Shown piece by piece: positions 39,774 through 59,292 of a stretch of 64,000 bases of DNA. Each line of letters begins with the position of its first letter. Within the stretch, counting starts at the first letter, position 1. The stretch is taken from IMG/VR virus record IMGVR_UViG_3300037487_000968, positions 141,280 to 205,279 of that record; one strand, given 5' to 3'. This stretch comes from a virus (lineage: Duplodnaviria; Heunggongvirae; Uroviricota; Caudoviricetes). The position numbers and the translations under genes are program-made. Under the pieces are notes generated by a model. The model made no database searches and was not told where the DNA came from. It saw only the letters and a list, made by a program, of their open reading frames with translations.

Positions 39774-40631
39774 ATGTATTTAGCATACACTTATTTAATC
39801 ACAAATAAAATTACCCATCAATTTTATTATGGATCTCGTTATCAAAATATAAAATTAAAAAGAACGCCGGAACAAGATCTTTGGATATTTTATTTTACTT
39901 CATCAAAAGAAGTAAAGAAATTATTAAAAGAATACAATAAAGATTTATTCGAAATATCTATAGTATTCAAATCCGAAAACTACGATGAATGTTACTGGCA
40001 GGAACAAGATCTAATAAAAGAAAATATAATAAATCCTTTGTGTATGAATCTGACATATACTGATAAATCAGCAGGAAGGCACATATTTTCAATGGCAGGT
40101 AAAACTCGATCCGAAGAAGCCTGTAAAAAATCATCAATCTCATTAAAGGCGTATCATGAGAATGAACCAGCTGATGTTAAAGCAGCAAGATTCGCTCTCC
40201 AGAAAGCCGCGTGGAATAGAAGATCGGAGGAATCGGAAATTGAACGCATTGATAAAATGATATTTTCTCGTAATAATAAGACAGAAGAAGAAAAATTAGT
40301 TATGTCGAGAAATAGAAGGATAGCCCAGACAGATAGAGTGGAAGAAGCTAAGTTGATTTCTGTTTTCCGACAAAAAGAGACAAAAGCAAATTGGTCTCCC
40401 GAAAAGAGAGAAGCATTTATAAATAAAGTGAAATCTTGTGTTAATAAGGGTAATGCTAAAGGTGGGACATACCAGATCACTGATCCGGCCGGTAATACAT
40501 ATATTATTGTTAGTTTAAGTAAATTTTGTAGAGAAAATAATCTACCATTTGATTCAATGAGAGGTATTGCTGCAGGAACCCAAAAGTGTTGTAAAAATCA
40601 TCCAGGTTGGCGATTACATAAACTTGACTGA
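39774..40631 (+). CDS. GIY-YIG homing endonuclease (Seg/I-TevI-like, free-standing)
   Basis: N-terminal YTYLITNKITHQFYYGS matches the GIY-x10-YIG core (compare I-TevI GIYQIKNTLNNKVYVGS). NUMOD-like repeats and a C-terminal DNA-binding tail follow. The gene is AT-rich and on the opposite strand. Confidence 0.7.
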   Translation: MYLAYTYLITNKITHQFYYGSRYQNIKLKRTPEQDLWIFYFTSSKEVKKLLKEYNKDLFEISIVFKSENYDECYWQEQDLIKENIINPLCMNLTYTDKSAGRHIFSMAGKTRSEEACKKSSISLKAYHENEPADVKAARFALQKAAWNRRSEESEIERIDKMIFSRNNKTEEEKLVMSRNRRIAQTDRVEEAKLISVFRQKETKANWSPEKREAFINKVKSCVNKGNAKGGTYQITDPAGNTYIIVSLSKFCRENNLPFDSMRGIAAGTQKCCKNHPGWRLHKLD

Positions 40632-42976: not shown

Positions 42977-44017
42977 TTATTTCTCATTGTTGTATTTAGC
43001 CTTCAGCATCGGCATAAATGCTGTAGAATTATCACCGATTTTCTTTAATGCCCACTTACCGCAAAACTTCATAAAGCCCACACCAATTTCAACAGCAGGA
43101 ACATTTTTACGATCAGTTTGCTCTGCTATAATTTGTAGGCATTCAGTTTTTACATTATCGGGTATTTGAGATAGGTCAATTAAAGTTCGGTTAAATTCAT
43201 ATTGTTCTTTAACACGTTTTTCTTCTTCGTTATGATCTACCCATTTCTGTAACATAAAATTGTTCCAGGCGTAGCCCTTGTTTGTATCGGCAAAAGCTTC
43301 CCGGATTCCGATTGTTGCCTTAGTGCCTTTTTCTCTCACACCCGGATAAGCACTAAAGATATTATCAGTCTTATCACCACGAACACATTTTAAGAATAGC
43401 GCATAGTTATACCATTCTTTTTCACATTCGAAGTTAGGATTCTTTTTACCGGCCTTAATCTTAGCATCAGATTTAAGAATAAATTCTAATCGGTTACCAT
43501 CATCATCGAATACACCGTCTTGTTTAATTTGGATATCCTTAACAGGATCATATAACATTACATTAGGATATTTTAATAATTGAAAGAAGTCAGAATCAGA
43601 ACTAATAATAATATGTTGATCATCTGGGTGGGCTTCAATGAATACAGCGATCATATCATCGGCCTCGGCTTTAGGATTCCGAAGTACTGTTATGTTAGTT
43701 TTCTGATCAAAGTATTCAACAAGGTCATCAAAGGATTCCACAAGAATTTCATGATCTTCTTGTTCTTTAATGGTTTGTTGAGCAAAGGCGGTTGGTCGAT
43801 TTCCTTTGTAGTCAGGGTAGATATCCTTACGCCAAGACCGCCCCTCAATATAGAAGATGGTATGGGTTCCATTCCACTTACTATACTCTTTCTTCATACT
43901 GTTGAGTATCAGGTGTAACGCCATGCCTATCATGCTATCGATACCCAATGCAGGATTAGTCATTTTAATTTGACGATAAAATAAATTATGACCGTCTGTG
44001 TGGATAAAAGTGTGCAT
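42977..44017 (-). CDS. rnh: RNase H / 5'-3' flap exonuclease (T4 rnh-like)
   Basis: AEADDMIAVFIEAHPDDQHIIISSDSDFFQLLKYPNVMLY aligns with T4 RNase H YEADDHIAVLVKKFSLEGHKILIISSDGDFTQLHKYPNVKQW. An upstream YKGNRP motif is also present. Confidence 0.85.
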   Translation of the reverse strand: MHTFIHTDGHNLFYRQIKMTNPALGIDSMIGMALHLILNSMKKEYSKWNGTHTIFYIEGRSWRKDIYPDYKGNRPTAFAQQTIKEQEDHEILVESFDDLVEYFDQKTNITVLRNPKAEADDMIAVFIEAHPDDQHIIISSDSDFFQLLKYPNVMLYDPVKDIQIKQDGVFDDDGNRLEFILKSDAKIKAGKKNPNFECEKEWYNYALFLKCVRGDKTDNIFSAYPGVREKGTKATIGIREAFADTNKGYAWNNFMLQKWVDHNEEEKRVKEQYEFNRTLIDLSQIPDNVKTECLQIIAEQTDRKNVPAVEIGVGFMKFCGKWALKKIGDNSTAFMPMLKAKYNNEK

Positions 44018-44069: not shown

Positions 44070-44333
44070 TTACGACGGGTCGCTTACACTTGAGCGGTGA
44101 ACTTGCTTTAGCAGGGCTTTATATTCTGTTGGATGTGAACGCCAATAAACAGCGTGGGATTTCTGCGGGCGTTCAACATAGTGATCGAAAAGGATTCCTT
44201 GTCTACGAGGATCAACATTGTGTGATAGGCATCCTGGACACGGAAAATAGTTTCGCATTGAAAGAGCTTCGCGGATGGACATTTTCTCTCCGCCCAATCT
44301 ACGCTTCATTGCATAGTATGTGCGATAATGCAT
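44070..44333 (-). CDS. hypothetical basic protein
   Basis: 87-aa ORF filling the gap. More GC-rich than its surroundings. Confidence 0.3.
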   Translation of the reverse strand: MHYRTYYAMKRRLGGEKMSIREALSMRNYFPCPGCLSHNVDPRRQGILFDHYVERPQKSHAVYWRSHPTEYKALLKQVHRSSVSDPS

Positions 44334-44983
44334 TATCTATAGCCTTTCTTGCCAACTGGCAGACCTTTAGAATCATCACTCCAACGTTTAACTGCATCGA
44401 GATTAGCTTCTGAATCAGCAGTAAAGTCTCCTGTGCCATCAAACTCTTCCATTGCCACATTTCTACATACTTCCATAAACCATTGATTAACAATGTTGTC
44501 TGGTGTAGGACCCGAATATCCTGCTTCTTTGAGTTTTTCTACAAACTGCTCGTTCCAATCAAGTTCAAAGCTGCCTTCAAGTGCGGTCTTACCACCAAAG
44601 TCCATGCTTAAACAATTAATCCACGGCTCGCCCTGTAATGTAGCTAATTGCTTTTCGTATTCTAAATCATTGACCTTACCTTTTCTGTGGTCAATTTCTA
44701 ATGCGGCTAGTGCCTTCTGCTTCTCATCTTTAATTAGTGTGATGAGATTGTCATGATAAGTCTGTTCATTTATGTGACCGTACTTTAGTTCAATATCCCA
44801 TTTCTTTGTGGTATATGTATCCTTATCATAATCTTCTTTATTAAGATCGAGTAACCGTACTTCCAACATAATACCTGTAAGCTCATACTCTGCTCGCATA
44901 ATTTCTCTAGTTTTTCCTGCTGTTCCCCAATGTGCTGGGAGCCACCCAAACGGTATTAATTTTTTAGACATATTCTTTTCCAT
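44333..44983 (-). CDS. hypothetical protein
   Basis: 216-aa ORF. Confidence 0.45.
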   Translation of the reverse strand: MEKNMSKKLIPFGWLPAHWGTAGKTREIMRAEYELTGIMLEVRLLDLNKEDYDKDTYTTKKWDIELKYGHINEQTYHDNLITLIKDEKQKALAALEIDHRKGKVNDLEYEKQLATLQGEPWINCLSMDFGGKTALEGSFELDWNEQFVEKLKEAGYSGPTPDNIVNQWFMEVCRNVAMEEFDGTGDFTADSEANLDAVKRWSDDSKGLPVGKKGYR

Positions 44984-45357: not shown

Positions 45358-47208
45358 TCATGCCAAACTCGCAAACAGGTGAATCTGCATCTGCATCTTA
45401 AATCCATGCTGCATACAATATTGCCCAACATACTTGTGGTTAGCCTCATTCTTTTCCATATCAAGTAACCCCGGTTCCCACCATGAAATAATCTCATCAA
45501 CTGTGCTACGCTCTGCCATAGTGATCTCACCCTTCTCTGCCCTGAGTAGTTTGATCTTCTGCGGGAAAGAATTATAAATGTTCATTGGGCTACAATAGAT
45601 ATCCTTGCCTGTCTTTACTTTCCAATCATGTGCCCACTGTGGCACATTGTTATAAGGACTTTCTGTATCTGCACTCATAACAAACTTCAAGCAGTCTGCA
45701 CGATCTAAAATAGTTTTAGATGGTGCGTAATACTTCACGGCCTTACCATCCTTCTCCATGCACTTGGGAGAGCAAACGAGTGTAACACCGTCTGGTACTA
45801 CTGTATCAGGAATACCGTTGCTTTCAACTTGTACTGCTTTGAAATACATCTTTTGTTGATATTGCATAAACGCAGAGATGTTTTCTTGCAGCAACGGTTC
45901 GCCGCCAGTCATTACTAATACGATATTAGGATACAGCTTGCCTATCCGAGTTTTGTTCAGTGCCCAATCTGGTGCAGCAATTCCTTTTTCGTTGTTAAAG
46001 TACCCGCAAATAGTATTGTGGATCTTAGTTTCAATCTGTATAAACGTCATCCAATCGCCATCGTCAAAGAAAGTATCACAATTATGTACTACACATCCGT
46101 TAGCAATATATGTATGTGTATCTTCTACTTCGAAATTATAAACGGTACGTTCGGCAGTTTTACTACCGAATAATCTTGCCCATCCTCTTCCGTCGGTTTC
46201 ATTTACAAACTCTACACTCTTTACTACTTTACCGTTATGAATAAATTCCGCAACCTTTTCGCGTATTTTACTATGTTCGGACATTTTAAGCTCGCTCTGA
46301 ACAAGTGGTAAGAATAAAGTATCATACCCTTCTTTAGCAAATAGCGCCTTGCGTTTTTCCATCCACTCTTTACCACGAGGAGATTTTTTAACCCATAGTG
46401 AGTCATCTGCCCAAACTTCAATTACTTTCTTTTGTCCGTTTACAACAAAGTCGGGTACTTTATGCTGGATAACTAAATCCCCGGCACCTACAAAAGTAAT
46501 AGGTAATCCTTCACATATTTTTTCTACTTTAATCTCTAATCCAGATTTAAGTTGTGTTTCTCGATTAACCCAAGATTTTAGAGCAGTAGCAGGATCTTTC
46601 ATTGGATTACCTGCGCCCGTTAAGCGTTCGATATTTTTCTCTCTAAACTCCGGGTCTTCCCATAACGCAGATAATCTTGTTGCTGCTTTATCTTTTTCAT
46701 CCTGAGACATAGGTGCACGATTTGCCAGGTCAAACGCAGGATTAAACACTTTCCTGCGGTCAGATAACGACCAGTGTACAATTTTGTCACCTGCCACTAA
46801 ATCCTCGGCATTAACCCAACTCCTATTAGAGGTTAAGAATGGATGTTCTGGCGTACACCAAACCGGCTCGCCTGAGCTGGTTACTTTAACAATTTTGTCT
46901 GCGATAGACCTGTATGTGCGTGTAACCTTCTTAGGAACCATTTTATCCTTGTCCCACGACATAACCATGTCACCTACTTTGACTTGGTCGATTCGTTTAG
47001 ATTTTCCATCTGCCATTGTAATCTTAGTAGACGGTACAAAGCAAAAGCTACAATCTAAATTGCACTTTGCTAGACGGATGAAGAGTGCGGGCGTGCCAGC
47101 GTATGGTCCTTCTCCCTGAAGAGTGAAGAACATGCTTGTTACAAACAGGCTATCCTTGGGTGCATCCTTAAAATACTTCTTACCGATAATTTCATTAGTT
47201 CCGAACAT
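45358..47208 (-). CDS. queE: 7-carboxy-7-deazaguanine synthase QueE (radical SAM) interrupted by an intein
   Basis: N-extein GEGPYAGTPALFIRLAKCNLDCSF plus C-extein CDTFFDDGDW reconstitute the QueE CX3CX2C-DT signature. Inserted between them are 321 aa bearing intein blocks A (CFVPSTKITMADG), B (TPEHPF) and G (VVHN|C). Confidence 0.8.
   Translation of the reverse strand: MFGTNEIIGKKYFKDAPKDSLFVTSMFFTLQGEGPYAGTPALFIRLAKCNLDCSFCFVPSTKITMADGKSKRIDQVKVGDMVMSWDKDKMVPKKVTRTYRSIADKIVKVTSSGEPVWCTPEHPFLTSNRSWVNAEDLVAGDKIVHWSLSDRRKVFNPAFDLANRAPMSQDEKDKAATRLSALWEDPEFREKNIERLTGAGNPMKDPATALKSWVNRETQLKSGLEIKVEKICEGLPITFVGAGDLVIQHKVPDFVVNGQKKVIEVWADDSLWVKKSPRGKEWMEKRKALFAKEGYDTLFLPLVQSELKMSEHSKIREKVAEFIHNGKVVKSVEFVNETDGRGWARLFGSKTAERTVYNFEVEDTHTYIANGCVVHNCDTFFDDGDWMTFIQIETKIHNTICGYFNNEKGIAAPDWALNKTRIGKLYPNIVLVMTGGEPLLQENISAFMQYQQKMYFKAVQVESNGIPDTVVPDGVTLVCSPKCMEKDGKAVKYYAPSKTILDRADCLKFVMSADTESPYNNVPQWAHDWKVKTGKDIYCSPMNIYNSFPQKIKLLRAEKGEITMAERSTVDEIISWWEPGLLDMEKNEANHKYVGQYCMQHGFKMQMQIHLFASLA
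46081..47043 (-). mobile_element. Intein (aa 56-376 of the QueE precursor), large enough to carry an endonuclease domain
   Basis: Starts with Cys1, has a TxxH block B, ends YIANGCVVHN and is followed by a +1 Cys that is also the third Fe-S ligand. Confidence 0.75.
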
Positions 47209-47807
47209 TATTCTTTGCCGCCTTTTAGCTTTTCTACTATTTTAGACGCTTCCAACAAATAAGTCAAGTCATCTGCCGTTAGGGAACCTTTTTCTTTAGC
47301 AATTTCAATTAAGTCAGCAAATACACTGTCTCTCATTCTATGCTTTACACCCTGTGTAATACCGGATTGCATTTCACCCCCTAGTGATATTGATCTAGCA
47401 AAGGCTTCAGCCGCTTCATTTACATCAATACCATTACCCCATGTTATTGTACCATCTCGGTTGAGACGAACAATCTCTGTATTAGACTGATTATAAAATG
47501 TGACTACAGAAGTAGAATTATGAAGATTAGTACCAATTGTAAAACTGCTAGATCCTTGATAAGGGGATGATGTTATTGTATTATAAACACTACCTGCAGC
47601 TATTGTTGATCCCGTGATCATACTGCTATTCATTGTATATGTCGGGATATTCGTCCCGGTTGATAAGGTAATATTTCCCACGGTATTAGCAGAACCAATA
47701 GAGCTATTAGCGGGAAAAGAGGAAGGCACTGTTACTGTAGTAGGCATTTTAGTTTTACCCTTTTTAGAAAACCATTTCTTAAACACATTAAACTCCTGAC
47801 GAGTCAC
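47208..47807 (-). CDS. Ser/Thr/Asn-rich hypothetical protein
   Basis: 199-aa ORF. Confidence 0.45.
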   Translation of the reverse strand: MTRQEFNVFKKWFSKKGKTKMPTTVTVPSSFPANSSIGSANTVGNITLSTGTNIPTYTMNSSMITGSTIAAGSVYNTITSSPYQGSSSFTIGTNLHNSTSVVTFYNQSNTEIVRLNRDGTITWGNGIDVNEAAEAFARSISLGGEMQSGITQGVKHRMRDSVFADLIEIAKEKGSLTADDLTYLLEASKIVEKLKGGKE

Positions 47808-48123
47808 CCCATGTATGCATGTATCTAGATAGACGTGCCATCTTATTAATGCGGGCTTTTTCTATACCCTCAGCTGTAACACCTAGGCCAGCGTTTGTGA
47901 CCATATCTACCAGAGCCAATACATCACCTAATTCCATTTCTAAATTTTCGAGATTGGTTGTTGTAGAATTAGGATTTTTACCTACAACACCAAATCTCTT
48001 AATCTTTGAAGCTGCCTGAATAACTTCAGCACATTCTTCCTGCAAAATGTTTAGGCATTCTTCCTGATGATCATTTACCTGTTTCAAATTTCTTCTCCCA
48101 GTTCCATGCATGTGAAATAGCAT
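47788..48123 (-). CDS. mazG: MazG-like nucleotide pyrophosphohydrolase
   Basis: EECAEVIQA...ELGDVLAL EExxE/D motifs of the all-alpha NTP-PPase fold. Confidence 0.6.
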   Translation of the reverse strand: MLFHMHGTGRRNLKQVNDHQEECLNILQEECAEVIQAASKIKRFGVVGKNPNSTTTNLENLEMELGDVLALVDMVTNAGLGVTAEGIEKARINKMARLSRYMHTWGDSSGV

Positions 48124-49045
48124 CTTTGATATTATATTGTGGTTCCCAATTTAGTAACTGTTTTGCCTTGGAAATATCTGCTACTAATTCTGCCGGGTCA
48201 CCTAACCGTCTAGGCATATATTCAATTACTGGTGCAACACCAACAACCTCGCCTGCATACTGAACCAGTTCTTTAACACTAACACCATCACTGCCACCAC
48301 CGAGATTAAATGCTTCGTTGCCATTCCCGGCATCGAAGAAATCTATTGCCTTAGCATGAGCATCAGCCAGATCTGCGATATGAACATAATCGCGAACACA
48401 GGTGCCATCCTTAGTGGGATAATCATTACCAAATAAAGGAAATGATTCACCCTTTAATATCTTATTACATAAAATAGGAATAACGTGTGTTGCCGGACGT
48501 TGAACATATCCAAAACGGCAGGCTGGATCAGCACCTGCTGCATTAAAGTATCTAAAATTTACATACTTTAGACCATACGCCCTGGCATAATCCTTAATCA
48601 TTAATTCGCCTGCTACTTTTGTCGATGCATATGGATTCTCTGGATCATAGTATAGACCTGCTTCTTTAAGTGGTCCATCTTGACCTTGCCGACCATACGT
48701 ATTTCCGCTAGAACTAAAGATAATGTTCTTCATCCCATTAGCGACCATGATGTCGAGCATACCCTTCATTTTTACCACATTATTTGCGTAATACTTCTCC
48801 GGTTCTGTTACGCTCTGTTCTACTAGATGCTCTGCCGCAAGATGTATAATAGTATCATAGTGAAAAATATTCGATTGTAGGAAACTAAGATAATCCTCTT
48901 CAAATATAGTTGCTGGTGTATCCCAATTCTTAATCTTACGATCTACTATAGATACCTGATGTCCTTGCTCGTGTAATTTGTGTGCTACTTGCGTACCAAC
49001 AAACCCGCTACCACCCGTAATTAAAATTTTATGCTTTTTTGTCAT
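48071..49045 (-). CDS. NAD-dependent sugar epimerase/dehydratase (GalE-like, extended SDR)
   Basis: N-terminal TGGSGFVG Rossmann motif and YASTK catalytic YxxxK. 324 aa. Confidence 0.7.
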   Translation of the reverse strand: MTKKHKILITGGSGFVGTQVAHKLHEQGHQVSIVDRKIKNWDTPATIFEEDYLSFLQSNIFHYDTIIHLAAEHLVEQSVTEPEKYYANNVVKMKGMLDIMVANGMKNIIFSSSGNTYGRQGQDGPLKEAGLYYDPENPYASTKVAGELMIKDYARAYGLKYVNFRYFNAAGADPACRFGYVQRPATHVIPILCNKILKGESFPLFGNDYPTKDGTCVRDYVHIADLADAHAKAIDFFDAGNGNEAFNLGGGSDGVSVKELVQYAGEVVGVAPVIEYMPRRLGDPAELVADISKAKQLLNWEPQYNIKDAISHAWNWEKKFETGK

Positions 49046-49304
49046 TTACTAACCTTTCAATAATCTTATATGCATCGTATGCCTCTTGTAATGCAGGGTA
49101 CTTATCTTGCATAATTTGGTTGGGCTCAATAATTGCTAATCGTGCTTCTATTGCTTCTATCCGTTTAAGAAGTATTTTATAATCGGATTCTGCAAATATA
49201 GGACCCCATGTTGCTCCGGTACTACCTGCAGTTAATACGACACCAGGTAAAACTGTGCCTACAGTTTGAGCTATAATTCCATAATTTGGTTCCCCGACGC
49301 TCAT
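49029..49304 (-). CDS. hypothetical protein
   Basis: 91-aa ORF. Confidence 0.35.
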   Translation of the reverse strand: MSVGEPNYGIIAQTVGTVLPGVVLTAGSTGATWGPIFAESDYKILLKRIEAIEARLAIIEPNQIMQDKYPALQEAYDAYKIIERLVNDKKA

Positions 49305-49588
49305 GCTGAATACTTTATTTTGAAGAATAGTGCATCATCGGAATCTACAAACCCTATGTAGATAGCTTCTGATCCATACCCATTGTTAAATTTTACTTCT
49401 ACTAATCCGTTACTGTTTGAATTTACCCACTCTATCATATCTAGAAAGCCGGGTGTATACAAACGCTTTACTACTACCTTATATTTCTTATCAAAGATAG
49501 GCTGGCCATCACATCCTATCATATCAATAGGTTTTTCAGTCGAGGATGACTTTCGGAAAATACGAAAGAGTTGCGCCATTTTCCCCAT
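49301..49588 (-). CDS. hypothetical protein
   Basis: 95-aa ORF. The start is uncertain and may be an internal Met. Confidence 0.3.
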   Translation of the reverse strand: MGKMAQLFRIFRKSSSTEKPIDMIGCDGQPIFDKKYKVVVKRLYTPGFLDMIEWVNSNSNGLVEVKFNNGYGSEAIYIGFVDSDDALFFKIKYSA

Positions 49589-49898
49589 CTTCGCTTACCT
49601 CCACAGAAACTGTCCGGTTTGGGTATGCACCTACAATATAGTTAATAAGTTCTTCTGCGAGCATTTCACAGCTCTTATAATCTACCTCCATTGCACCGCT
49701 ATCAAAGATAGATTCTAGTTCGCGTTTAAATAAAATAAATTCAATATCTCTATCATTGTGTTCCACAGACACGGTTGCCTTAAAATGGAAAATATGTCGA
49801 TGCGGGTGTTTTAAAAATTCTACACCAGCTGGTGCATCTGGGTAGCGATGAATCCCTTCTTTCTGGAAGGTAACAAAAATAGTTCTATTTAAACTCAT
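49536..49898 (-). CDS. queD: QueD-like 6-carboxy-tetrahydropterin synthase (PTPS family)
   Basis: HRYPDAPAG...HPHRHIF parallels E. coli QueD [21 protein letters not shown]. Overall length is 120 aa. Confidence 0.6.
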   Translation of the reverse strand: MSLNRTIFVTFQKEGIHRYPDAPAGVEFLKHPHRHIFHFKATVSVEHNDRDIEFILFKRELESIFDSGAMEVDYKSCEMLAEELINYIVGAYPNRTVSVEVSEDGENGATLSYFPKVILD

Positions 49899-50638
49899 TT
49901 TTTGGCTTTTGCCTTCTTTGTAGATTCCTTCGCTGAGAGCGGGTCGGTTTTAGCACCTTCAGCATATGCTTCAGCTGCGTCCGTAGGGCTCTTAATAAAG
50001 GCGACTGGCGATACTTTCGTTTCTTCATATTCCGGCTTTAATAATGATTTAGAATCTGGATCAAGTCCTAGTTCTGTCTGATTTTTTACCTCAGTCTGCA
50101 CTGTTACTGCTGGTGTTGATTGCTCTTGTGTAATAATCAAATCCGAACCATATTCCGTCCAATCAGTAAAACGGTTACTATCGGTTACTTCCTTAAAGTG
50201 CATACACCACACACCCGGGTTGGTTGCATTAAAATCAACATCGTCAATTTTAACTGTTAGATTAGAACTAGTTGTTTGTATACTCGGAATTCGTACACTT
50301 AACAACGGTACAAACATTCTAGATAACCAAGTAGCAGGATTCAATACACTTAGCATTGCCTTATGTAAATGCGCTTCGTATTCGAGTGTCACCCAAAAAC
50401 CTTTATCTAATAAAGCAGTAATAGTTTCATTCCAATAAGGTGATACAGGAATAGATGCATCAAATGAGTGATTGGCACCCATAAAGATATGTGTTACCTT
50501 ATGTTCTGTGGCATGTTTTAAAATAGATTTAATATCTTGTTTACCGACTACAAATAAAGTCTTCTTTGAGTATGCAGGTGTATGCTCTACCTCTGGGCCG
50601 ATGAAGAATGCCACATTGTTATGTCCGTCTCTTTTCAT
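49895..50638 (-). CDS. hypothetical protein inside the deazaguanine cluster
   Basis: 247 aa, no recognisable motif. It lacks the QueC SGGxDS motif and has a Lys/Ala-rich tail. Confidence 0.45.
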   Translation of the reverse strand: MKRDGHNNVAFFIGPEVEHTPAYSKKTLFVVGKQDIKSILKHATEHKVTHIFMGANHSFDASIPVSPYWNETITALLDKGFWVTLEYEAHLHKAMLSVLNPATWLSRMFVPLLSVRIPSIQTTSSNLTVKIDDVDFNATNPGVWCMHFKEVTDSNRFTDWTEYGSDLIITQEQSTPAVTVQTEVKNQTELGLDPDSKSLLKPEYEETKVSPVAFIKSPTDAAEAYAEGAKTDPLSAKESTKKAKAKK

Positions 50639-50807
50639 TTTATTTCCTTATACTAATTCTTCGATAATACCTAACATTTCTGCAACCACAATCATTGTGC
50701 CTGCAAAAAATAGGTTACCTACTGCTAGACTGCATCCTGCTACAATGCGTAATGCACTTTTAACGAAACTAATTCGTTGATGTAATTTTGGATCTGGCTG
50801 TTTCATT

Positions 50808-51986
50808 TTAATATTTTGCCTTTGCTACGTGTTTTCTATAATCATTACCATTACGTGCCCACTCTTCGCCTTTGCCTTCAAATACGTCTAGTGTGCGATC
50901 TATTGTTCCATTTTGCCAATCACTTACTGCACCTGTTTTATATGATGCCGGACTCACAAACATCTTTTCAAGTCTTTCTGCGGCATCTTCTACGCTCCAC
51001 GGAATATACATATTCTTTGGATTATTAGCAAATACTTCCGGAAAACTGCGATATGCTGGATATAATGTTAGTGTGCCAAACGTGTCAGCTTCGCTTACTG
51101 TGTTACTTACCCAGTCTTGTAAAGCACAGTTAAATAAAACGGTGCTATCAGCAAGCAATTCATAGTAGTCATTCTTTTTCAGACCAGTATAGATCTTAAA
51201 ATTCGCAGTTCCGCTGGTTGTCAAATATTCGGCAAACTCGACATGCTGCTTATTATTACTCTTTAATTTAGGATGACCACAGAATATAGCAAATTCAACA
51301 TCTGGTCGAGTTTTGTAAAATCTCTGTGCCAATTGCATATAGAATTCTGGTTGCTTTTCGTCATCCCATCTTGCTGCAAAACCTACACGTTGCTCACGTG
51401 ATGTAATTGGTTTGACAAAAGGTACTCTGCTCTTAACTTCTTCTTTACCAAACGGTAATCCTGTTACATAGATAGGTGCTTTCATTCCTGCAATACGCAG
51501 ATTTGCAACCATTTCCTCACTTGCGACAAGAATTCCTGATACAAACTCATCTACCATTTTTTCGTAGTGACGCATCCAATGTGCCATTCCTTCACGATTA
51601 ACAAAATCATCTGGATCAATAGATTGTGCTAAACAACGAACATACACCTTTGGGCGAAACTTTTTAGGAACCTGTTCTAAGATATACGGTAAGCTTTCGA
51701 TGCCGGGTGTAAACATATCCTCATAAAAGATAACATCATCTTTTGTTACCTTACCTTCCTTCATAAGTTTAACAAGATTGGCTGTCTGCAACATACTATA
51801 ATATGTTCTGCCGTGTGCATCCAATACACTACCTGTAACAATTTTCTTATCTGTGCTTAGTTCGCTACCCGTTACAAGTTCATATTCAATACCGCGCAGT
51901 TTAAATACACGTTCATTCCAATCTTGTAGTTGAAGTGTATAACGTGCTTCATAACTTTCTAAACCCATATAAAATAGTTTTCTCAT
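50808..51986 (-). CDS. Glycosyltransferase (GT-B, group-1-like)
   Basis: The C-terminal half carries the EX7E-like region typical of GT1 enzymes. Start set at the MRKLF Met (51986), which has an AAGGGA Shine-Dalgarno. The ORF itself extends to 52040. Confidence 0.5.
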   Translation of the reverse strand: MRKLFYMGLESYEARYTLQLQDWNERVFKLRGIEYELVTGSELSTDKKIVTGSVLDAHGRTYYSMLQTANLVKLMKEGKVTKDDVIFYEDMFTPGIESLPYILEQVPKKFRPKVYVRCLAQSIDPDDFVNREGMAHWMRHYEKMVDEFVSGILVASEEMVANLRIAGMKAPIYVTGLPFGKEEVKSRVPFVKPITSREQRVGFAARWDDEKQPEFYMQLAQRFYKTRPDVEFAIFCGHPKLKSNNKQHVEFAEYLTTSGTANFKIYTGLKKNDYYELLADSTVLFNCALQDWVSNTVSEADTFGTLTLYPAYRSFPEVFANNPKNMYIPWSVEDAAERLEKMFVSPASYKTGAVSDWQNGTIDRTLDVFEGKGEEWARNGNDYRKHVAKAKY

Positions 51987-51988
51987 TT

Positions 51989-52228
51989 TTATCCCTTTAA
52001 AATATATGCGAGTACATCCTCGCCTTCGACTACCACACATTGACTACCGTATACTAGATAACCATCTCTATAATGTCCCTGAACAGGCATTGCTCTTATC
52101 ATTTTAGGCATTATTTTAGTAACCGAACATATCATTAAAGAATTATGAACTGCCACAGCAACTTTAGTACCTAAGCAAATGGGTCTGCCGAGTATATCAG
52201 GGTGTTCAGGTGTTACTTTCTTTGGCAT
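51989..52228 (-). CDS. hypothetical protein
   Basis: 79-aa ORF. Confidence 0.35.
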   Translation of the reverse strand: MPKKVTPEHPDILGRPICLGTKVAVAVHNSLMICSVTKIMPKMIRAMPVQGHYRDGYLVYGSQCVVVEGEDVLAYILKG

Positions 52229-52529
52229 TGGTTGTATGTGTCGAATATATGCGCTTTATGTGCGATATTACTTCGTTATCTATTTCTTTGGCTATTTCTG
52301 CCGATAATACCCTAAGCATTTCATCTTCAAGACGTTCTGCTGCGGTCTTGTATGGTTGGCTTAATCGACGAACAATCTCATCTGCTTGTTCTTCTTCATT
52401 CATATCCTTAACACCCTTTAGAGGAAAGGGCGGTTTAGGTGATGGGTGAATACCGTCGCTCCAATTCGTTAATATGCGAAGTGGTGCGCTGGCGGGCTTA
52501 TATGTTGTTATCTTATCTATCATAGTCAA
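52206..52529 (-). CDS. hypothetical protein
   Basis: 107-aa ORF. Confidence 0.35.
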   Translation of the reverse strand: MTMIDKITTYKPASAPLRILTNWSDGIHPSPKPPFPLKGVKDMNEEEQADEIVRRLSQPYKTAAERLEDEMLRVLSAEIAKEIDNEVISHIKRIYSTHTTNAKESNT

Positions 52530-52923
52530 TGACGCGAATCAGCTTATCTCCCATCCAATGAGAGCAACCTTCATTCTTATCCTCAGCCATATCTTTCAGC
52601 ATCTTAGTGTAATCTTTCTTGCTGATTTCTCTACCATCGACGATAGTTTCACCTAGATAACGCTGTGATACAGATTCAAAGGAATCGTCATCATTACCAG
52701 AATCAATCATTGTTACTTCATCATATGCGTGTTCAAGCTCTGCCGCTTCAATTACATAACGATGTCTAAAAGTAGAAATAGTATCAACGATGTATAATTT
52801 TTTCTTAGCCACTTTATTTTCTTCCTTCTTAAGTTTAGATGCCATCATTATATTATAAAACTCTAGTTGTTTTTCTACAACCTTTTTCGCTTCTTTCACG
52901 CCCGGAAAATCTTTAGTTCTCAT
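52513..52923 (-). CDS. hypothetical protein
   Basis: 136-aa ORF. Confidence 0.4.
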   Translation of the reverse strand: MRTKDFPGVKEAKKVVEKQLEFYNIMMASKLKKEENKVAKKKLYIVDTISTFRHRYVIEAAELEHAYDEVTMIDSGNDDDSFESVSQRYLGETIVDGREISKKDYTKMLKDMAEDKNEGCSHWMGDKLIRVIDYDR

Positions 52924-53747
52924 AATCCTAGTCCTTCCAAATTTTCGTAGGGCACTCTAAATCCTGCTGCATGGAAATGTCCGCCGCCGCCGTGAGTTAC
53001 AGCAATAGCCGACACATCGATTCCTTCTTTAGATGAACGCAAACTAAATTCGCGTCCATCTGGCTTATCATAATAACAGGCAGCAAAAGGTTCGTTGATA
53101 GCCATAATATGTCCTGCTTCAGAACTCATTGTATACGGAAGATTACATACAGGTACATCGTATCCTGCAATCGTGATTCTTTTCTGCATAACACCGATCA
53201 ATTCCCGAATATCTTTTAGGTGCTTACGATCGATCGCCTTACCTTCGGTAATCAATTCTTGTAGGTCAACCTTCATCAACATATCCCAATTTTCGAATGT
53301 GTAACCATAGCTGAAAATTGATGCTTGAATTTCTTTTGTGAATGGGATTTTAAATTGCCAACGATCTCTATCATCGACATGTTTAATAATTTGAGGAATA
53401 TCTTCACCGGGGAAAAAGAACATCCAGGTAAGCATTGCACCGCTGAAGTTATTTTCTAGACTATAAAGTGTGGTCATTTGTTTTTCTAAACCCACTAAGT
53501 CGATAATTGCTGTTGCGTGGTGGTCGATATGTGTAACGCTGTTTGCCTTAGCAATGATTTCTTCCATTACAGGGCGTTTATACGCAAAGTCTACAATATA
53601 GACATCTGCTCCTGTTACATCTGGTGGTGGTGTTTGATATACTCCTGCATGGTATTCAACGTCTTCACCTAACGCCCTTCGTACTACCCATGCTGCTGTA
53701 AATCCATCGGCACAGTTGCCATGATAGATACATATTTTCTTCGTCAT
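52920..53747 (-). CDS. DHH-family phosphoesterase (NrnA/RecJ-like, DHH+DHHA1)
   Basis: IYHGNCADGFTAAW (motif I/II), IDHHATAI (DHH) and GGGHFHAAGF (DHHA1 GGGH). Confidence 0.7.
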   Translation of the reverse strand: MTKKICIYHGNCADGFTAAWVVRRALGEDVEYHAGVYQTPPPDVTGADVYIVDFAYKRPVMEEIIAKANSVTHIDHHATAIIDLVGLEKQMTTLYSLENNFSGAMLTWMFFFPGEDIPQIIKHVDDRDRWQFKIPFTKEIQASIFSYGYTFENWDMLMKVDLQELITEGKAIDRKHLKDIRELIGVMQKRITIAGYDVPVCNLPYTMSSEAGHIMAINEPFAACYYDKPDGREFSLRSSKEGIDVSAIAVTHGGGGHFHAAGFRVPYENLEGLGL

Positions 53748-53981
53748 TTATTTCCTTCTTTTCGGTTGTTGGCTCTTATGGCGAATGTTTAGATTGTGGG
53801 GCCTCGGCGGCCTCGAAACAAGTTGTGGTTCACATTCTGCAAACACTGAATGGGCACATATGAGCCCATTCAGCATGCCATGCATATAGTTTACGCCCGT
53901 CCCGCCTACATATACAGAATCCGACTGTATACCAATCATGCTCTCTAGGCAACTAAGTTGTTTTTGCAGTTTCTCATTCAT
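53748..53981 (-). CDS. hypothetical small protein
   Basis: 77-aa ORF. Confidence 0.3.
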   Translation of the reverse strand: MNEKLQKQLSCLESMIGIQSDSVYVGGTGVNYMHGMLNGLICAHSVFAECEPQLVSRPPRPHNLNIRHKSQQPKRRK

Positions 53982-55512
53982 CTATGTTAATAAGGTCTTC
54001 TTTATCAAGACTTGCAATATCCTCACCCTTAATCTCTTTCTTTGTATTTGCATTAGAATGATCAAATAAGGAATGGTATGTATCAACGATCTTATTTTCC
54101 TTGAAACTTATACTGTTGAGCTGCCCCTCATAGTCCTTTAGTAACTGATATGCACCATCTCTATCTCTAGAAAATAGTTCTTCAACGAAACTGTTAAAGA
54201 AGAAAATATTATTTGGTAAGAAATCGCAAATTGGCACTTTTGATTTCTTTACCCAATCTCGATAATCAATCTTCTTGGTTGCATATACAATATCTGCATG
54301 CCGATTAATTTCTTGTACAGCCTGGATGTGATTATAGACATTATGTCCCATAACAATAGCATAGGTAGTTGTGTCCCAACTTGTCTTACCTTCCTTGCCG
54401 TGCTTATTTAAATCGCCCGGGCCCATCACGCATAAATCACCAACAGTACAACGCTCCATAATAGGGCCCTGGAATGTCATTCCTAATTTACTACCCTTTA
54501 GGGATTTATCATCCAAACCTCTTCCCATTGCATAGGTAAGTTGATCGGGATCAAATTTATTATAATTATAGGAAAGAGCATATCCGCCTGCTGCAACAAA
54601 TGGCGATGCAGCATCAAAGCTAATATTGATATTAGGATTATACTTCTTCAGTTGGCGTTCAATTGATGTTAAGAAACATGCCCAATCTAATCTACCAATT
54701 CCCAAAAAGTGAATCCAGTCTTTAGTTGCTAGTAATCCATCTTCTCGTAGATCAATAAGACGTTCGAGTGCAGTTTTCATATCTCTCATGTTGACACCGG
54801 CGAATGCCCATCCCTCAAGTGTTCTATCAGGTGTGTATCCGAGTGCCTCTACTGCTTCCGGAATGCTATATGGGATAACTCTTTCGTACCATGTTTTCGA
54901 TGTTTCATTTGAACTACCCGAAAGTACATTTAAAAATTTAGTTGCACCAGGTACTCGATGTTCCATAAAATATTTGAGATTGTATTCAGTAACATCTAAG
55001 CAATCTTCAAATTTAGTCAACCCAGTCTTTTCACTCAATGGTGGTAATGCGGCAAATGCCGGGACATCTAATGTCATTGACCAATCTGAAGTGTGTTCTA
55101 GATAACGTAATATTTCTTCACGTAATTTATCACCCGCTGGAGTCATAACGGTGGTCCAATCCATCTTTATAACACCTGTTGCAATTTGGAATCCACCTGA
55201 GTCGCCGACAAGGATAGTATCTTTATCACGCTTGTGAATCATAGGTTCCCTATCATCACACTTATCCAGTTTCCGTTCAGCGTGGCCTGCTGAATACAAT
55301 CCATACTTGTAACTAAAGTACGCATCTTCGGGACCCTTTAAAAAGTCCAATCCCTGAATACCTAGTTCAAATTTTTCTGGTACACGCTCTTTGGGAATAA
55401 ACTTCTCATCTAGCAAATCTTTGCCCAGATGTGTTGTATAGAATCCGCTAATGGCAGGCAGGTATCGAGCCCATTGGCCTTCGTTGTGTCTTTTTGTAAA
55501 ATCAATTCCCAT
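53974..55512 (-). CDS. dpdA: TGT-family DNA/tRNA-guanine transglycosylase (DpdA-like)
   Basis: ILVGDSGGFQIATG matches the catalytic DSGGFQ motif of queuine/archaeosine tRNA-ribosyltransferases. 512 aa, co-clustered with queD and queE. Confidence 0.65.
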   Translation of the reverse strand: MGIDFTKRHNEGQWARYLPAISGFYTTHLGKDLLDEKFIPKERVPEKFELGIQGLDFLKGPEDAYFSYKYGLYSAGHAERKLDKCDDREPMIHKRDKDTILVGDSGGFQIATGVIKMDWTTVMTPAGDKLREEILRYLEHTSDWSMTLDVPAFAALPPLSEKTGLTKFEDCLDVTEYNLKYFMEHRVPGATKFLNVLSGSSNETSKTWYERVIPYSIPEAVEALGYTPDRTLEGWAFAGVNMRDMKTALERLIDLREDGLLATKDWIHFLGIGRLDWACFLTSIERQLKKYNPNINISFDAASPFVAAGGYALSYNYNKFDPDQLTYAMGRGLDDKSLKGSKLGMTFQGPIMERCTVGDLCVMGPGDLNKHGKEGKTSWDTTTYAIVMGHNVYNHIQAVQEINRHADIVYATKKIDYRDWVKKSKVPICDFLPNNIFFFNSFVEELFSRDRDGAYQLLKDYEGQLNSISFKENKIVDTYHSLFDHSNANTKKEIKGEDIASLDKEDLINIDE

Positions 55513-55542: not shown

Positions 55543-56286
55543 TTAGGCCTTGCCTGCAGGTAGAATATAGGAATATTTGCCGATGCCGCTATCGATATCA
55601 ATCTTTAATGCACCCATATCAGAAAAACTCATTGTTGCTGTTGATGTTTCTGTTAACTTTAGAATAGCAAGAACCTGAGCCAAAGGCCACGACCATTGAT
55701 GTTTTAATGTGCCTGTTACATTATCTGCAAATGGTAAGACAGTGCTATCTGTCGGGCCTGTTCCTACTGCAAAATTTAGTGTCCCTTTATCAACACTAAC
55801 CACAAAACGTTTTTCAAAGCCGCCTAGTGTGCCTAACATATAAGACAGCTCTGCAATCTTCTTCTTTTCCGGTGTAATGGTTACATTCCAAGTCGCACCC
55901 TTAAAAGGCGGAACCTTAATTTGCTCATTAACCATTGTTTCACTCATGAAACGATAATTTGCCGAATGCCCGTAGCCAGATGCAAATTTAACACCAGTTG
56001 GAACAGTCACACCGTTACGTAATTCTGTAACAATATCGGTTGATGCCTTATCTCCGCTAAATACTGGAAAATCAATAAAGCCCTTTAGAATAGCAACACG
56101 TGATAAACCTACTGTTGCATCAACACCGGTAATAGGCTGATACATGGTTCCGAAAACAACCACAGTTTTATCTGCGTCGATTGCTTCAATTTTTGCATCT
56201 GCCCCTGTACCTACAATTTTTACCATATCAATAAAGCCTAACGAATTTGTGTGCTTAATGATATCCTTAAATGAATCTAATAACAT
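55543..56286 (-). CDS. Putative sliding clamp (T4 gp45-like)
   Basis: 247 aa directly downstream of the DNA polymerase. Size and position resemble T4 gp45, but sequence similarity is weak. Confidence 0.35.
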   Translation of the reverse strand: MLLDSFKDIIKHTNSLGFIDMVKIVGTGADAKIEAIDADKTVVVFGTMYQPITGVDATVGLSRVAILKGFIDFPVFSGDKASTDIVTELRNGVTVPTGVKFASGYGHSANYRFMSETMVNEQIKVPPFKGATWNVTITPEKKKIAELSYMLGTLGGFEKRFVVSVDKGTLNFAVGTGPTDSTVLPFADNVTGTLKHQWSWPLAQVLAILKLTETSTATMSFSDMGALKIDIDSGIGKYSYILPAGKA

Positions 56287-56340: not shown

Positions 56341-59292
56341 TCACATCTTGCTGAAGTCAAACAATGTCTCGAGATGTGCGTGTTCTTTATTGGTTCTACT
56401 TAAATCCCATTTAAGTACGCCTAGTAGATTTTCTACTTTCTTATCAACAATACCTGCCATCATATCATCGCTGTCAAATGGTAGGTTTAAGAACCACTCT
56501 GGCAGATGATTCTCATCCACAGGATAGGCAATTGATGTAAGTCTGTTTTCGGATGTTTCTTTTAGCTTACAAACAATAATTTTCTGTCCGTCGATAATTT
56601 TCATAGCATGTTGATCTAAGTGGACTTCTTTTAATCTATTCCACGCAAGGCTTGCTGTTACGTGGCCCGGTACGTGTAAGTTACCTACCTCAATGCCTTT
56701 TAACTTCTTAAATCCTGCATCTTCGAGTTTATCTCTATAATGGGTCAACTTATTAACTGCTCGCGGAGTGCCTTGTTGCCAAGGTTTCATATCTTCAAAT
56801 TTTTCCTTGAATAAACGAACCTTCTCAATAACCGCATTTTCACCTTTGTCTATAAGAGTATCCATTAGTATCTCAGAGAGGAATTTTTGCACGAATTTAG
56901 GCGTATCTGCACGCTTCAAATCGAGTCCCATAGCCTTTACCTTACCTACCTTACCACCTACATCGAGTCTAATACCGTCCTTATCATACATTAAGCAAGC
57001 ATAACGCTTCTTAACCATCCATATCCCGGTCTCTGAAACAGTTTCACGAGAGCTTGCAATTACGCCGGTTGAACGCTTAATAGGCACATTAAATTTACCT
57101 AATAAGAATTCTGGGAAGGTTGCGGAAACTGCTTTTGCCAGGTCATTGTAAAGATCTACAATACTTTCTTTAGTCCATACAATCTCATTACGATCTATTT
57201 CTTCTTTAAGTATAGGATAGGCAGAGAAATAGCACGAGTCTGTATCACCATACACAATCGACTTACCGTAGTGATCATATTCACCTGTCATCATTTCGTT
57301 AGTCTTTGCTGCCATATGTTTGGTAATCGTTCTACCGGTTAATGTAGTTGATTGTCCTAGGCGTTGATCAAAAAATCTACTACCTGCATTTAATAACGCA
57401 CCATATGCAGAATTTAAATTAATTTTCTTAACAAGTTGACGCTTATCCCAAAATCCAACAATACGCTTTAAGTCCTTTTGATCTCTGTGAATTGCCTTAC
57501 CATCCTTAACCATTAGGTTGTGTTGATTCATATATTGAATAACACGCTTTGTATGGCCTTCAGCAATGATTTCCTTTAATTTTTTAGGTCTGTATGACTC
57601 GGCGTCTAAGTAAGGGTTAGCCTTTAACTCTGCATCGTTAATATCACTATTTGTGAACAATTCCGCCGGTACCTTCACGCCTTCTATCTTGTCATTATCC
57701 TCAATGTCTTGATAGTTAACCATAATACCCTGCAGTATCTTACGCTCGTTATACCAACGAGTTAACAGACTAGGAATTACCCCATCGGCATCAGTTTTAA
57801 AAATTGTACCATTAGCACTAATGCACCAAGGTTGTCCACTTTCAAATATAAGATCGTGTAACTCTTTACCGGTTACTTCATATTCAGAACCGTCTTCCAT
57901 ATCTAATATTAGCTTTGTACCAATATCTTCATTATAAAAATCTTCCATCTCGAGCACATGGAATCTATCATTCCACCATGACGCAAATGTGTATTTGGCT
58001 CCTCTTGCTTCCCAATCCTTAATTGCCTGATTTGTACGGTCTAACCTAATTTGTCCCACAATCATTTCTGGGCTCATATTAAGCGTTCTAATTACAGATG
58101 GATATAGTGACTTCATGTCAGTGCTACCTATCCATCTGTGAAATCCTTTCTTTGGTGTTGCAACCCAACCACCTGCTGCTCGAGCTGATTTCTCATCGTG
58201 CGAATGTTTCTTATCCGGGCATATCATATTACGGTTATGTGCTTCCATCAGCACATTTTGATCTGTAACCGCAACTGCACCCATTGTTGTTTGGATTAAT
58301 ACACAACTTGAATGTGCAATTGAGTTTGCTAAGTCAATAAATTGTAGTTTCTTATCAAGTTTATCTAACAATCGCGTATCTTGTAGGTTGTATTCTAGGA
58401 ATTTCTTAAAATCATCGTTATATAATTCGTCTAATGTACCATCGTATTGGACTTTAGTTTCACCTAATTCAACCTCGGCAATTGCGTTAAGTGCATAGCT
58501 GTGGCGTTCTTCATAATTATACTTCTTGTAGATTGCCATGTAGTCAACTGAAATACGGCCAATCAAATCATATGTAATAGCTTCCTTACCGCCACGATCA
58601 TATGTGCGTTCTTTAGGCATTTGTTCCCAAAGACACATTCTTCTAGCTTCGTTCTTACCTAGGATTTTCTTTATACGATTTACAACATATGGAATATCAT
58701 ACACTTCTGAATTCCAACCAGATAGAACATCAGCATCCTCAATAATGTCTATAAAGGCGTTTAGCATATCTGCTTCTGATTTAAACAATACTGTGTTGCC
58801 TACTTCGTCTGCAATCGCAGTGGCTTCTTCCCATGTTAGTGTTTCGGGAGGAATAGCCAAACATATGATTTCATCTAACCACTGTAAATGTACAGATATA
58901 GCAGTGATATAATTATTTGCATCAGCTGCATCAGACCAACCTTCTTCTTTATCAAAGCTAGTTTCGATATCGAAAAATGCCACATTTAAGGTAGGTGCAT
59001 CACCGTGATGATAATTGTGTTCAAGACAACGAAAGATAGGATCAACATCAGATTCCCAGCGTCTGACATTACCTGACAGTGTTTTTATTAACTTTTGTTT
59101 TTCTATGAAGGTACGCGGTGTAATCTTTTTTACCGTATCATCGTATATAGTTTTGTGCGAGCCCTTTGGGTCGCTAAGATAGAAGTGATAATCTGGTTGG
59201 AATTCACGATAAACACGTTTACCGTGAATTCTTTCTACAATTTTAATTACTTCAGTATCGCCGCCCTTCTTAAAGAGCGCATCAATATACAT
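56341..59292 (-). CDS. Family-B DNA polymerase (T4 gp43-like) with 3'-5' exonuclease domain
   Basis: Exo I FFDIETSF, pol motif A DMKSLYPS, motif C YGDTDS. 983 aa. Confidence 0.9.
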   Translation of the reverse strand: MYIDALFKKGGDTEVIKIVERIHGKRVYREFQPDYHFYLSDPKGSHKTIYDDTVKKITPRTFIEKQKLIKTLSGNVRRWESDVDPIFRCLEHNYHHGDAPTLNVAFFDIETSFDKEEGWSDAADANNYITAISVHLQWLDEIICLAIPPETLTWEEATAIADEVGNTVLFKSEADMLNAFIDIIEDADVLSGWNSEVYDIPYVVNRIKKILGKNEARRMCLWEQMPKERTYDRGGKEAITYDLIGRISVDYMAIYKKYNYEERHSYALNAIAEVELGETKVQYDGTLDELYNDDFKKFLEYNLQDTRLLDKLDKKLQFIDLANSIAHSSCVLIQTTMGAVAVTDQNVLMEAHNRNMICPDKKHSHDEKSARAAGGWVATPKKGFHRWIGSTDMKSLYPSVIRTLNMSPEMIVGQIRLDRTNQAIKDWEARGAKYTFASWWNDRFHVLEMEDFYNEDIGTKLILDMEDGSEYEVTGKELHDLIFESGQPWCISANGTIFKTDADGVIPSLLTRWYNERKILQGIMVNYQDIEDNDKIEGVKVPAELFTNSDINDAELKANPYLDAESYRPKKLKEIIAEGHTKRVIQYMNQHNLMVKDGKAIHRDQKDLKRIVGFWDKRQLVKKINLNSAYGALLNAGSRFFDQRLGQSTTLTGRTITKHMAAKTNEMMTGEYDHYGKSIVYGDTDSCYFSAYPILKEEIDRNEIVWTKESIVDLYNDLAKAVSATFPEFLLGKFNVPIKRSTGVIASSRETVSETGIWMVKKRYACLMYDKDGIRLDVGGKVGKVKAMGLDLKRADTPKFVQKFLSEILMDTLIDKGENAVIEKVRLFKEKFEDMKPWQQGTPRAVNKLTHYRDKLEDAGFKKLKGIEVGNLHVPGHVTASLAWNRLKEVHLDQHAMKIIDGQKIIVCKLKETSENRLTSIAYPVDENHLPEWFLNLPFDSDDMMAGIVDKKVENLLGVLKWDLSRTNKEHAHLETLFDFSKM

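Follow-up and report, generated by a model that had tools for sequence, protein, structure and literature searches.

A candidate glycosylating variant of the DpdL-type 7-deazaguanine DNA modification system in a Caudoviricetes virus record and its relatives

DpdL is a predicted decarboxylase of 7-carboxy-7-deazaguanine (CDG) that leads to 2'-deoxy-7-deazaguanine (dDG); it is recognized by the signature LxxxHRHxF, which stands in place of the QueD motif CxxxHGH (Cui et al., 2023; PMC10516641). In the Cellulophaga phage phiST, deoxyguanosine is fully replaced by plain dDG; the DpdL and DpdA of phage ACP17 did not reconstitute dDG, for which missing "unknown enzymes" were suspected, and the phiST DpdL/DpdA pair likewise failed in Escherichia coli (Cui et al., 2023; PMC10516641). 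The present analysis concerns a related gene cluster in a stretch of 64,000 nucleotides, hereafter the window (positions 141,280 to 205,279 of the IMG/VR virus record IMGVR_UViG_3300037487_000968), in which a glycosyltransferase (GT), a UDP-glucose 4-epimerase (GalE), and a 247-residue protein (p247) lie among deazaguanine genes. The gene identities, folds, intact catalytic motifs, and conserved linkage described below are observations, and at the level of gene linkage it is strongly supported that the sugar enzymes and p247 belong with the deazaguanine genes. The balance tips slightly towards the region encoding the DpdL-type 7-deazaguanine system in a glycosylating form, which would add a hexose to deazaguanine in DNA.

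From 56286 down to 45358, all genes of the window lie on the minus strand, with gaps or overlaps of at most 54 nucleotides in the open reading frame (ORF) listing, for which a single co-directional DNA-modification module is the best explanation. The module is placed among replication genes, with a family-B DNA polymerase (56341-59292) on one side and an RNase H/FEN (42977-44017) on the other. Families were assigned with Pfam and NCBIfam models. The original prediction had pointed to GalE, the GT, MazG, a DHH phosphoesterase, and p247 between QueE and DpdA; all the genes that it named occur on the minus strand, and both their coordinates and their family assignments hold. That census was right for the genes it listed but had overlooked DpdL (49536-49898), whose identification shifts the expected base from a preQ0-type compound to 7-deazaguanine or its 7-carboxy precursor.

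DpdL of the window is a 120-residue T-fold protein and a predicted CDG decarboxylase that carries the signature as LKHPHRHIF and is not matched by the Pfam PTPS model. It shares 46% identity with ACP17 ASD50405 and 38% with phiST gp040 (tblastn 3e-30 to the ACP17 locus 85835-86197 and 3e-14 to phiST gp040). QueE (45358-47208), the 7-carboxy-7-deazaguanine synthase, was identified by Pfam and by its radical SAM motif CNLDCSF/C...HN/CDT, which is interrupted by an intein (Intein_splicing, 5.4e-12), and its exteins match the QueE of ACP17. The intein is approximately 320 residues long and is sited within the radical SAM cluster motif (CNLDCSF / C FVPST ... VVHN / C DTFF); in the close relative L094, QueE has 316 residues, is intein-free, and adjoins a NUMOD3 endonuclease gene. 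QueE and DpdA are accompanied by DpdL; FolE, QueD, and QueC were not found among the window ORFs of at least 200 residues or the ORFs of 150-199 residues that were scanned. With QueC absent from the window and DpdL present, the expected base is CDG or 7-deazaguanine rather than preQ0 or preQ1. In the Vibrio phage Bakedbeans, DpdL forms the C-terminal domain of a 393-residue protein, gp176 (L010 7185-8366), in which an N-terminal part of approximately 270 residues with no assigned family is fused ahead of it.

The transglycosylase position is taken by a 512-residue protein (53974-55512), accepted here from its motifs and a profile match as a divergent long member of the DpdA family of DNA-guanine transglycosylases. 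It had no Pfam match, and a sequence-profile search of PDB returned nothing relevant; its family is characterized by the invariant TGT motifs DSGGFQ, HFLGxG, and SFD, which appear in the window as GDSGGFQ, HFLGIG, and SFDAASP. A comparison by hhalign with a family of 416-452 residues gave 93% probability (E 3.6e-7) over 184 columns with the motifs in register. This second family holds the DpdA position in the clusters of ACP17, BUDD, BUCT-ZZ01, and BCSR5; the BUDD member is annotated as queuine tRNA-ribosyltransferase, and the protein of BCSR5 matches the Pfam TGT model weakly (0.041). DpdA is 416-540 residues long, in two subfamilies, in GT-positive phages and 259-285 residues long in the GT-negative phiST and D479 (L002 8986-10608, L003 9441-10715, and L005 8807-9586 are among the loci concerned), and the extra C-terminal region of the long type may be tied to the sugar step.

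The GT (50808-51986, 392 residues) has a confident GT-B, GT4-like (retaining-type) fold with two Rossmann-like domains. Its start was set at 51986 because the homologues begin at MRKLFYMGLE. The Pfam model PF00534 scored 20.8 bits, below its gathering cut-off of 26.4, and the family profile matched only GT4 C-domains in PDB (best 3.4e-7); no sequence similarity to AGT or BGT was detectable. The family is composed of two subfamilies, the window type and the PA5oct type, with approximately 21% identity between them. Among 53 sequences drawn from both subfamilies, R206, E210, K211, and E299 of the donor site in the C-domain do not vary, and the E-x7-E motif reads D291-x7-E299 for the window protein but E-x7-E for the PA5oct type. 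The N-terminal acceptor domain keeps 12 polar or aromatic residues invariant across both subfamilies (E10, R15, Y16, Q67, D90, Y101, D124, D127, F128, R131, W137, and E142), which implies one conserved, specific acceptor, though the fold itself leaves the identity of that acceptor unspecified. A scan of the contigs of 185,579 cellular genomes found no close relative of the GT.

GalE (48071-49045, 324 residues, SDR family) matches Pfam Epimerase at 7e-51 and NCBIfam TIGR01179 with 298 bits against an equivalog cut-off of 262.3; the GT-adjacent homologue in L075 reaches 334.7 bits with TIGR01179. The motif GxxGxxG is intact as GGSGFVG at residue 11 and YxxxK as YASTK at residue 139, and marine relatives encode a compact SDR of 255 residues with both motifs intact. 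From the intact donor-site residues and motifs, the GT and GalE are predicted to be catalytically competent, and GalE is the probable supplier of the sugar donor.

The p247 protein (49895-50638) had no match in Pfam or NCBIfam and consists of a conserved N-domain of approximately 170 residues and a disordered tail. The family comprises 671 clusters at 50% identity, and its members are approximately 170 residues long in nearly all of the 150 clusters listed. The conservation of His, Asp, Asn, and Trp residues (GANHSF, Y..H.H, K.DD, and N.GVWC) hints at an enzyme or at a protein that binds a ligand. The gene overlaps or abuts DpdL in the window and in marine loci, and DpdA in ACP17. Within the sample, p247 was found only in GT-positive lineages, and in the 185,579 cellular genomes it occurred only in six contigs from metagenome-assembled genomes, which are phage-like and probably mis-binned phage. 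Here it is taken to be a DpdL/DpdA partner peculiar to the glycosylating variant. The K/A/E-rich tail (residues 173-247, listed at 49895-50416 on the minus strand) exists only in the clade of the window, where tail-bearing proteins vary from 242 to 318 residues and keep the motif DAAEAYAEGAK.DPL. The proteins of 143-155 residues encoded upstream of the GT in BUDD and BCSR5 reached only 30% hhalign probability with p247, over just 48 columns.

Each GT subfamily has at least 8,000 metagenome protein candidates, on contigs of up to approximately 400 kb from many marine samples. For each subfamily, 80 IMG/VR loci were fetched and their gene families counted with hidden Markov models (HMMs); loci with complete flanks of 10 kb on both sides of the GT formed a full-flank set of 38 window-type and 12 PA5oct-type loci. 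In this set, DpdA was present in 38/38 and 12/12 loci, respectively (50/50 in total), QueE in 38/38 and 11/12 (49/50), DpdL in 37/38 and 12/12 (49/50), the p247 N-domain in 35/38 and 12/12 (47/50), and a GalE-type SDR in 34/38 and 10/12 (44/50). Across all 80 window-type loci, DpdL was detected in 75 to 76 (tblastn, HMM), DpdA in 74 (56 of the long type and 18 of the 416-452-residue type), and GalE in 71; the 80 PA5oct-type loci contained DpdL in 80, p247 in 79, and DpdA in 76. At least five gene arrangements were seen, on different phage backbones. For instance, on a T4-like backbone (UvsW, gp46/47) the order is QueE-phosphoribosyltransferase-FolE-exonuclease-DpdA-x-DpdL-GT-GalE-QueD, which places the sugar genes within the set for deazaguanine biosynthesis. 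The comparative synteny that had been proposed as a check has thus been carried out, and it placed the GT, DpdL, and DpdA together in nearly all related loci on several backbones. The core of the module is composed of the GT, DpdL, DpdA, and, in most lineages, p247; DpdL is the gene to which the GT is most tightly linked, and the GalE-type SDR is a frequent but dispensable part.

The same linkage was found in phage isolates, where a tblastn census with the GT covered 50,697 phage records. The GT family occurs in 23 of them, DpdL in 29, and both in 18 (hypergeometric P = 1.5e-57 for the co-occurrence). The closest case is Synechococcus phage BUCT-ZZ01, in which a GT 58% identical to that of the window directly follows DpdL in the order QueE, phosphoribosyltransferase, QueD, FolE, DpdA, DpdL, GT. 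Distant homologues with 21-24% identity are found in five other isolate groups: PA5oct has the order DpdA-GT-DpdL, ACP17 has DpdA-GT-DpdL-QueE, Phosso has DpdL-GT, BUDD has GT-DpdA-DpdL-QueE, and in BCSR5 the GT adjoins a DpdA-type gene approximately 3 kb from DpdL. In most isolate clusters, the GT adjoins DpdL or is one gene away. The sole DpdL-negative group with a GT consists of PhiXhv-12/15/16 with Ep026/Ep032, where it stands beside GlmS and a deacetylase; this GT is the most distant member of the family, at 5e-32, with all others at 1e-112 or better. Cultured phages with the module are PA5oct and its relatives, ACP17, BUDD, X1, BCSR5, Phosso, and BUCT-ZZ01. A megablast of the region against the 50,697 phage records gave zero matches, which indicates that the window has no close relative among these isolates.

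In the proposed pathway, whose sequence of reactions, sugar, and acceptor atom are inferred, as is the presence of the product in virion DNA, QueE would form CDG from a pterin precursor made by FolE and QueD, encoded beyond the window or supplied by the host. DpdL would strip the carboxyl from CDG to give 7-deazaguanine, and the long DpdA would swap this base for guanine in the phage DNA. The GT4-like GT would then move a hexose from UDP-galactose or UDP-glucose onto the deazaguanine, most likely at the DNA level, as with the T4 glucosyltransferases. GalE would yield UDP-galactose from host UDP-glucose and so set the donor, and p247 would be an obligatory partner of DpdL and DpdA in glycosylating variants. 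MazG and the DHH protein would serve as clade-specific helpers in nucleotide metabolism. Hydroxyl groups are the usual acceptors of GT4 enzymes. Since 7-deazaguanine has none, the acceptor may be N2, C7, or the carboxyl that its precursor carries. For N2, the huimycin enzyme HuiG provides a precedent; C7 is nucleophilic and freed by DpdL, and its use would explain the coupling of DpdL and GT; an ester on the CDG carboxyl is possible and would fit loci L088 and L089, which lack a detected DpdL. That galactose or glucose is attached directly to C7, giving 7-C-glycosyl-7-deazaguanine in DNA, is a tentative and rather improbable refinement, which would fit because DpdL and the GT are tightly adjacent and the GT is absent where phages stop at plain dDG.

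Several points weigh against a hexose on deazaguanine in DNA. The missing hydroxyl is one of them. FolE and QueD are lacking in the 64 kb scanned, although both occur within the clusters of related clades. GalE is absent from five close relatives, L026 and L027 are examples of loci without it, and the SDR of PA5oct, gp320, is a fragment of 172 residues without YxxxK. L088 and L089 have a GT and GalE, with DpdL undetected. The GT family is acidic, with a median isoelectric point of 5.0, which was also counted on this side; it does not discriminate between DNA binding and other roles because the DpdA proteins, indeed all module proteins, are likewise acidic.

One different view of the same genes is that the GT and p247 serve in making or inserting plain 7-deazaguanine, either by way of an intermediate that a sugar activates or through a structural role of the GT alongside the long DpdA, so that the final base would bear no sugar. 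The cluster of ACP17 does encode a GT and a p247 homologue, the GT always adjoins DpdL or DpdA, dDG offers no obvious acceptor, and DpdA is long where the GT is present and short in the GT-negative phiST and D479. However, phiST reaches full dDG replacement without a GT, p247, or GalE, so the sugar genes are not needed for plain dDG, and its DpdL/DpdA pair failed in E. coli just as that of ACP17 did not reconstitute the base. The donor-site residues of the GT are also all kept, and a dedicated GalE is sensible only where it matters which sugar is moved, which makes this view doubtful. Somewhat less doubtful, though still unlikely, is that the GT and GalE act on a different acceptor, such as another modified base of the hydroxymethyl- or hydroxy-pyrimidine kind, tRNA deazaguanine, a free pterin or deazapurine metabolite, or a protein, and merely share an operon with the deazaguanine genes. 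The PhiXhv group might seem to illustrate such a use, but its GT is the most distant of the family, and in 49-50 of the 50 complete loci the GT comes with QueE and DpdA. Furthermore, the search of the window ORFs of at least 200 residues turned up no thymidylate-synthase-type hydroxylase, the SDR is a GalE equivalog and not a sepiapterin reductase, and the restriction pattern of PA5oct indicates G.

The original prediction had allowed that the sugar genes might equally be host-surface (lipopolysaccharide or capsule) functions or unrelated cargo, and had named the absence of the GT from related dpdA-containing phages as a point that would count for this. GT4 enzymes and GalE are indeed typical of the cell envelope, and some homologues are annotated as "glycosyltransferase involved in cell wall biosynthesis". 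The evidence went the other way: the GT was present with DpdA in every full-flank locus, synteny with DpdL, DpdA, and QueE is kept in approximately 160 loci on several backbones, the enrichment with DpdL is strong (the P value given above), the genes lie within the replication module between DNA polymerase and RNase H, and close relatives of the GT were lacking in the cellular genomes. The host-surface or cargo reading, now very improbable, was rejected on the conserved synteny across backbones and the lack of a close cellular relative of the GT. It is thus the glycosylating variant that the gene evidence favours, and the common phages with the module probably carry a sugar-decorated deazaguanine.

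The remaining genes of the region are less widely conserved. MazG (47788-48123, 111 residues; PF03819, 27.8 bits against a cut-off of 22) is a nucleotide pyrophosphohydrolase found in 13/80 window-type loci, and the DHH/DHHA1 phosphoesterase (52920-53747, 275 residues; Pfam DHHA1, 28.3 bits against 25.9), with its DHH motif as HIDHHATA, is found in 16/80, in both cases only within the clade of the window. The membership in a deazaguanine module suggested for all of these genes therefore stood for the GT, GalE, and p247, which are linked to DpdA and QueE, but not for MazG and the DHH protein, which are lineage-specific extras outside the module core. A 199-residue protein with an S/T-rich N-terminus (47208-47807), with no family match, was found in 18/80 window-type loci, likewise in the clade of the window only. 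Two small ORFs of 91 and 95 residues lie between DpdL and GalE (49029-49588) and three of 79, 107, and 136 residues between DHH and the GT (51989-52923); the former two had no family match and the latter three no meaningful one, and the 95- and 136-residue ORFs are kept in 18/80 and 15/80 window-type loci, respectively. A 52-residue ORF (50648-50806), another small ORF (53748-53981), and a 247-residue protein at the clamp position (55543-56286), distinct from p247, complete the minus-strand run, and a 216-residue protein is encoded at 44333-44983. A scan for promoters and terminators gave signals no higher than the shuffled expectation.

Deazaguanine clusters repeatedly contain or adjoin an enzyme that is a 3'-5' exonuclease or a phosphoesterase but differs in family: DHH in the window (52920-53747), an Rv2179c-like type in L075 (6907-7449) and L089, a DEDDh type in phiST, and, in D479, a phosphoesterase; L005 4411-5334 and L012 6680-7270 are also among the sites concerned. 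Similarly, a small PF00156 phosphoribosyltransferase is common in GT-positive clusters, with 51 loci of L001-L093 and 68 of L095-L174 (for instance, L075 5626-6048, L001 7081-7554, and L002 12937-13371, which is PA5oct gp321). Most other clades have it, but the window and its clade do not; it might recycle the guanine that DpdA releases or, as in tubercidin biosynthesis, ribosylate a deazapurine. Proteins of 181-211 residues that weakly resemble T4 endonuclease V (E 2e-4 to 2e-3 with Pyr_excise) occur in the T4-like versions of the cluster, and such or related genes are sited at L075 9123-9668, L089 8458-9093, L001 13778-14350, and L007 7382-7915, the last in Phosso, where a gene annotated "glycosylase" adjoins DpdL. 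These could assist the shorter DpdA type as helpers resembling DNA glycosylases. L088 (6782-7804) and L089 (8969-9991) share a unique ORF of 340 residues directly before GT-GalE-QueD, with DxD-like motifs (FMDNDAIL and GEDDFF) and no Pfam match, possibly a second glycosyltransferase of the GT-A type.

Elsewhere in the window, homing-endonuclease genes of the SegE-like GIY-YIG and HNH types were identified at 39774-40631 (plus strand) and 20524-21108 (minus strand), the former on the strand opposite to its neighbours and associated with a low-GC stretch of reversed skew at 40-42 kb. A DUF2201 metallopeptidase/VWA protein is paired with a MoxR-like AAA ATPase (21861-23069 and 23353-24447, minus strand), and a D-Ala-D-Ala carboxypeptidase (Peptidase_S11) and a cell-wall hydrolase are encoded at 14442-15212 and 7468-8016 (minus strand).

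The new element would be the glycosylation branch added to 7-deazaguanine DNA modification, which is itself already known. To our knowledge, the known sugar decorations of DNA bases are all on pyrimidines, and a glycosylated deazaguanine would be a new chemical class of DNA hypermodification. If it were 7-C-glycosyl-7-deazaguanine, it would be the first purine known to be glycosylated, and the first base known to be decorated through a C-glycosidic bond, in any genome; it would occur widely in jumbo and T4-like phages of marine and fresh waters, and also in the therapy candidate PA5oct. Neither a glycosylated deazaguanine in DNA nor a GT in DpdL clusters was found described in the literature, though a prior mention elsewhere is possible, and the text of Cui et al. 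mentions neither glycosyl, sugar, nor phosphoribosyl (PMC10516641). The GT and p247 are also candidates for the enzymes suspected to be missing when the ACP17 pair failed. A sugar on the base would bear on the evasion of restriction, CRISPR, END, and glycosylase defence systems, and on the sequencing and engineering of these phages. The presence of the module in cultured phages, including Pseudomonas therapy candidates, opens the prediction to direct test.

Among the described systems, phiST resembles the window in having QueE, DpdL, and a divergent TGT-like transglycosylase without QueC, a MazG-type gene in the cluster, and replication genes alongside. Its order is QueD-QueE-FolE-MazG-DpdL-(AAA_18 kinase-like protein)-short DpdA3, in which a GT, p247, and GalE were not found. 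The two MazG proteins show no detectable homology at E<1e-4, and phiST differs in the AAA_18 protein between DpdL and a DpdA3 of 259 residues, whereas the DpdA of the window has 512 residues and is of another subfamily. DpdL-type systems thus exist both with and without sugar genes. PA5oct (Wroclawvirus, gp316-gp322) is syntenic with the window in the order Pol, clamp-like, DpdA, GT, DpdL, ..., QueE, p216, RNase H, with identities of 48% for DpdA (gp316), 23% for the GT, 48% for DpdL, and 39% for the p247 homologue. Unlike the window, it has a GT of the other subfamily, the phosphoribosyltransferase gp321, and its p247 homologue 28 kb from the cluster. PA5oct DNA is reported to resist restriction by five enzymes, which fits modification of G in GA or GG contexts (2025 preprint, PMC12191111), and a glycosylated deazaguanine is a candidate for that base.

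The T4 alpha- and beta-glucosyltransferases and the arabinosyl-5-hydroxycytosine systems of RB69 and DLP3 act on a pyrimidine hydroxyl that derives from a thymidylate-synthase homologue. The window differs from them in that the associated base is a deazapurine and that no such homologue is present among its ORFs of at least 200 residues. A chemical likeness is found in secondary metabolism. In huimycin biosynthesis, the glycosyltransferase HuiG glycosylates a 7-deazapurine base derived from preQ0, and related biosynthetic gene clusters encode glycosyltransferases with PF13439, the GT4 N-domain; the tubercidin pathway decarboxylates the 7-carboxy-7-deazaguanine scaffold and uses a PF00156 phosphoribosyltransferase. 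Although these enzymes differ in acting on free bases, with no machinery for insertion into DNA and with a decarboxylase of the UbiD type rather than a T-fold, HuiG can be likened by description to the proposed phage GT, since both would place a sugar onto a deazaguanine-derived base.

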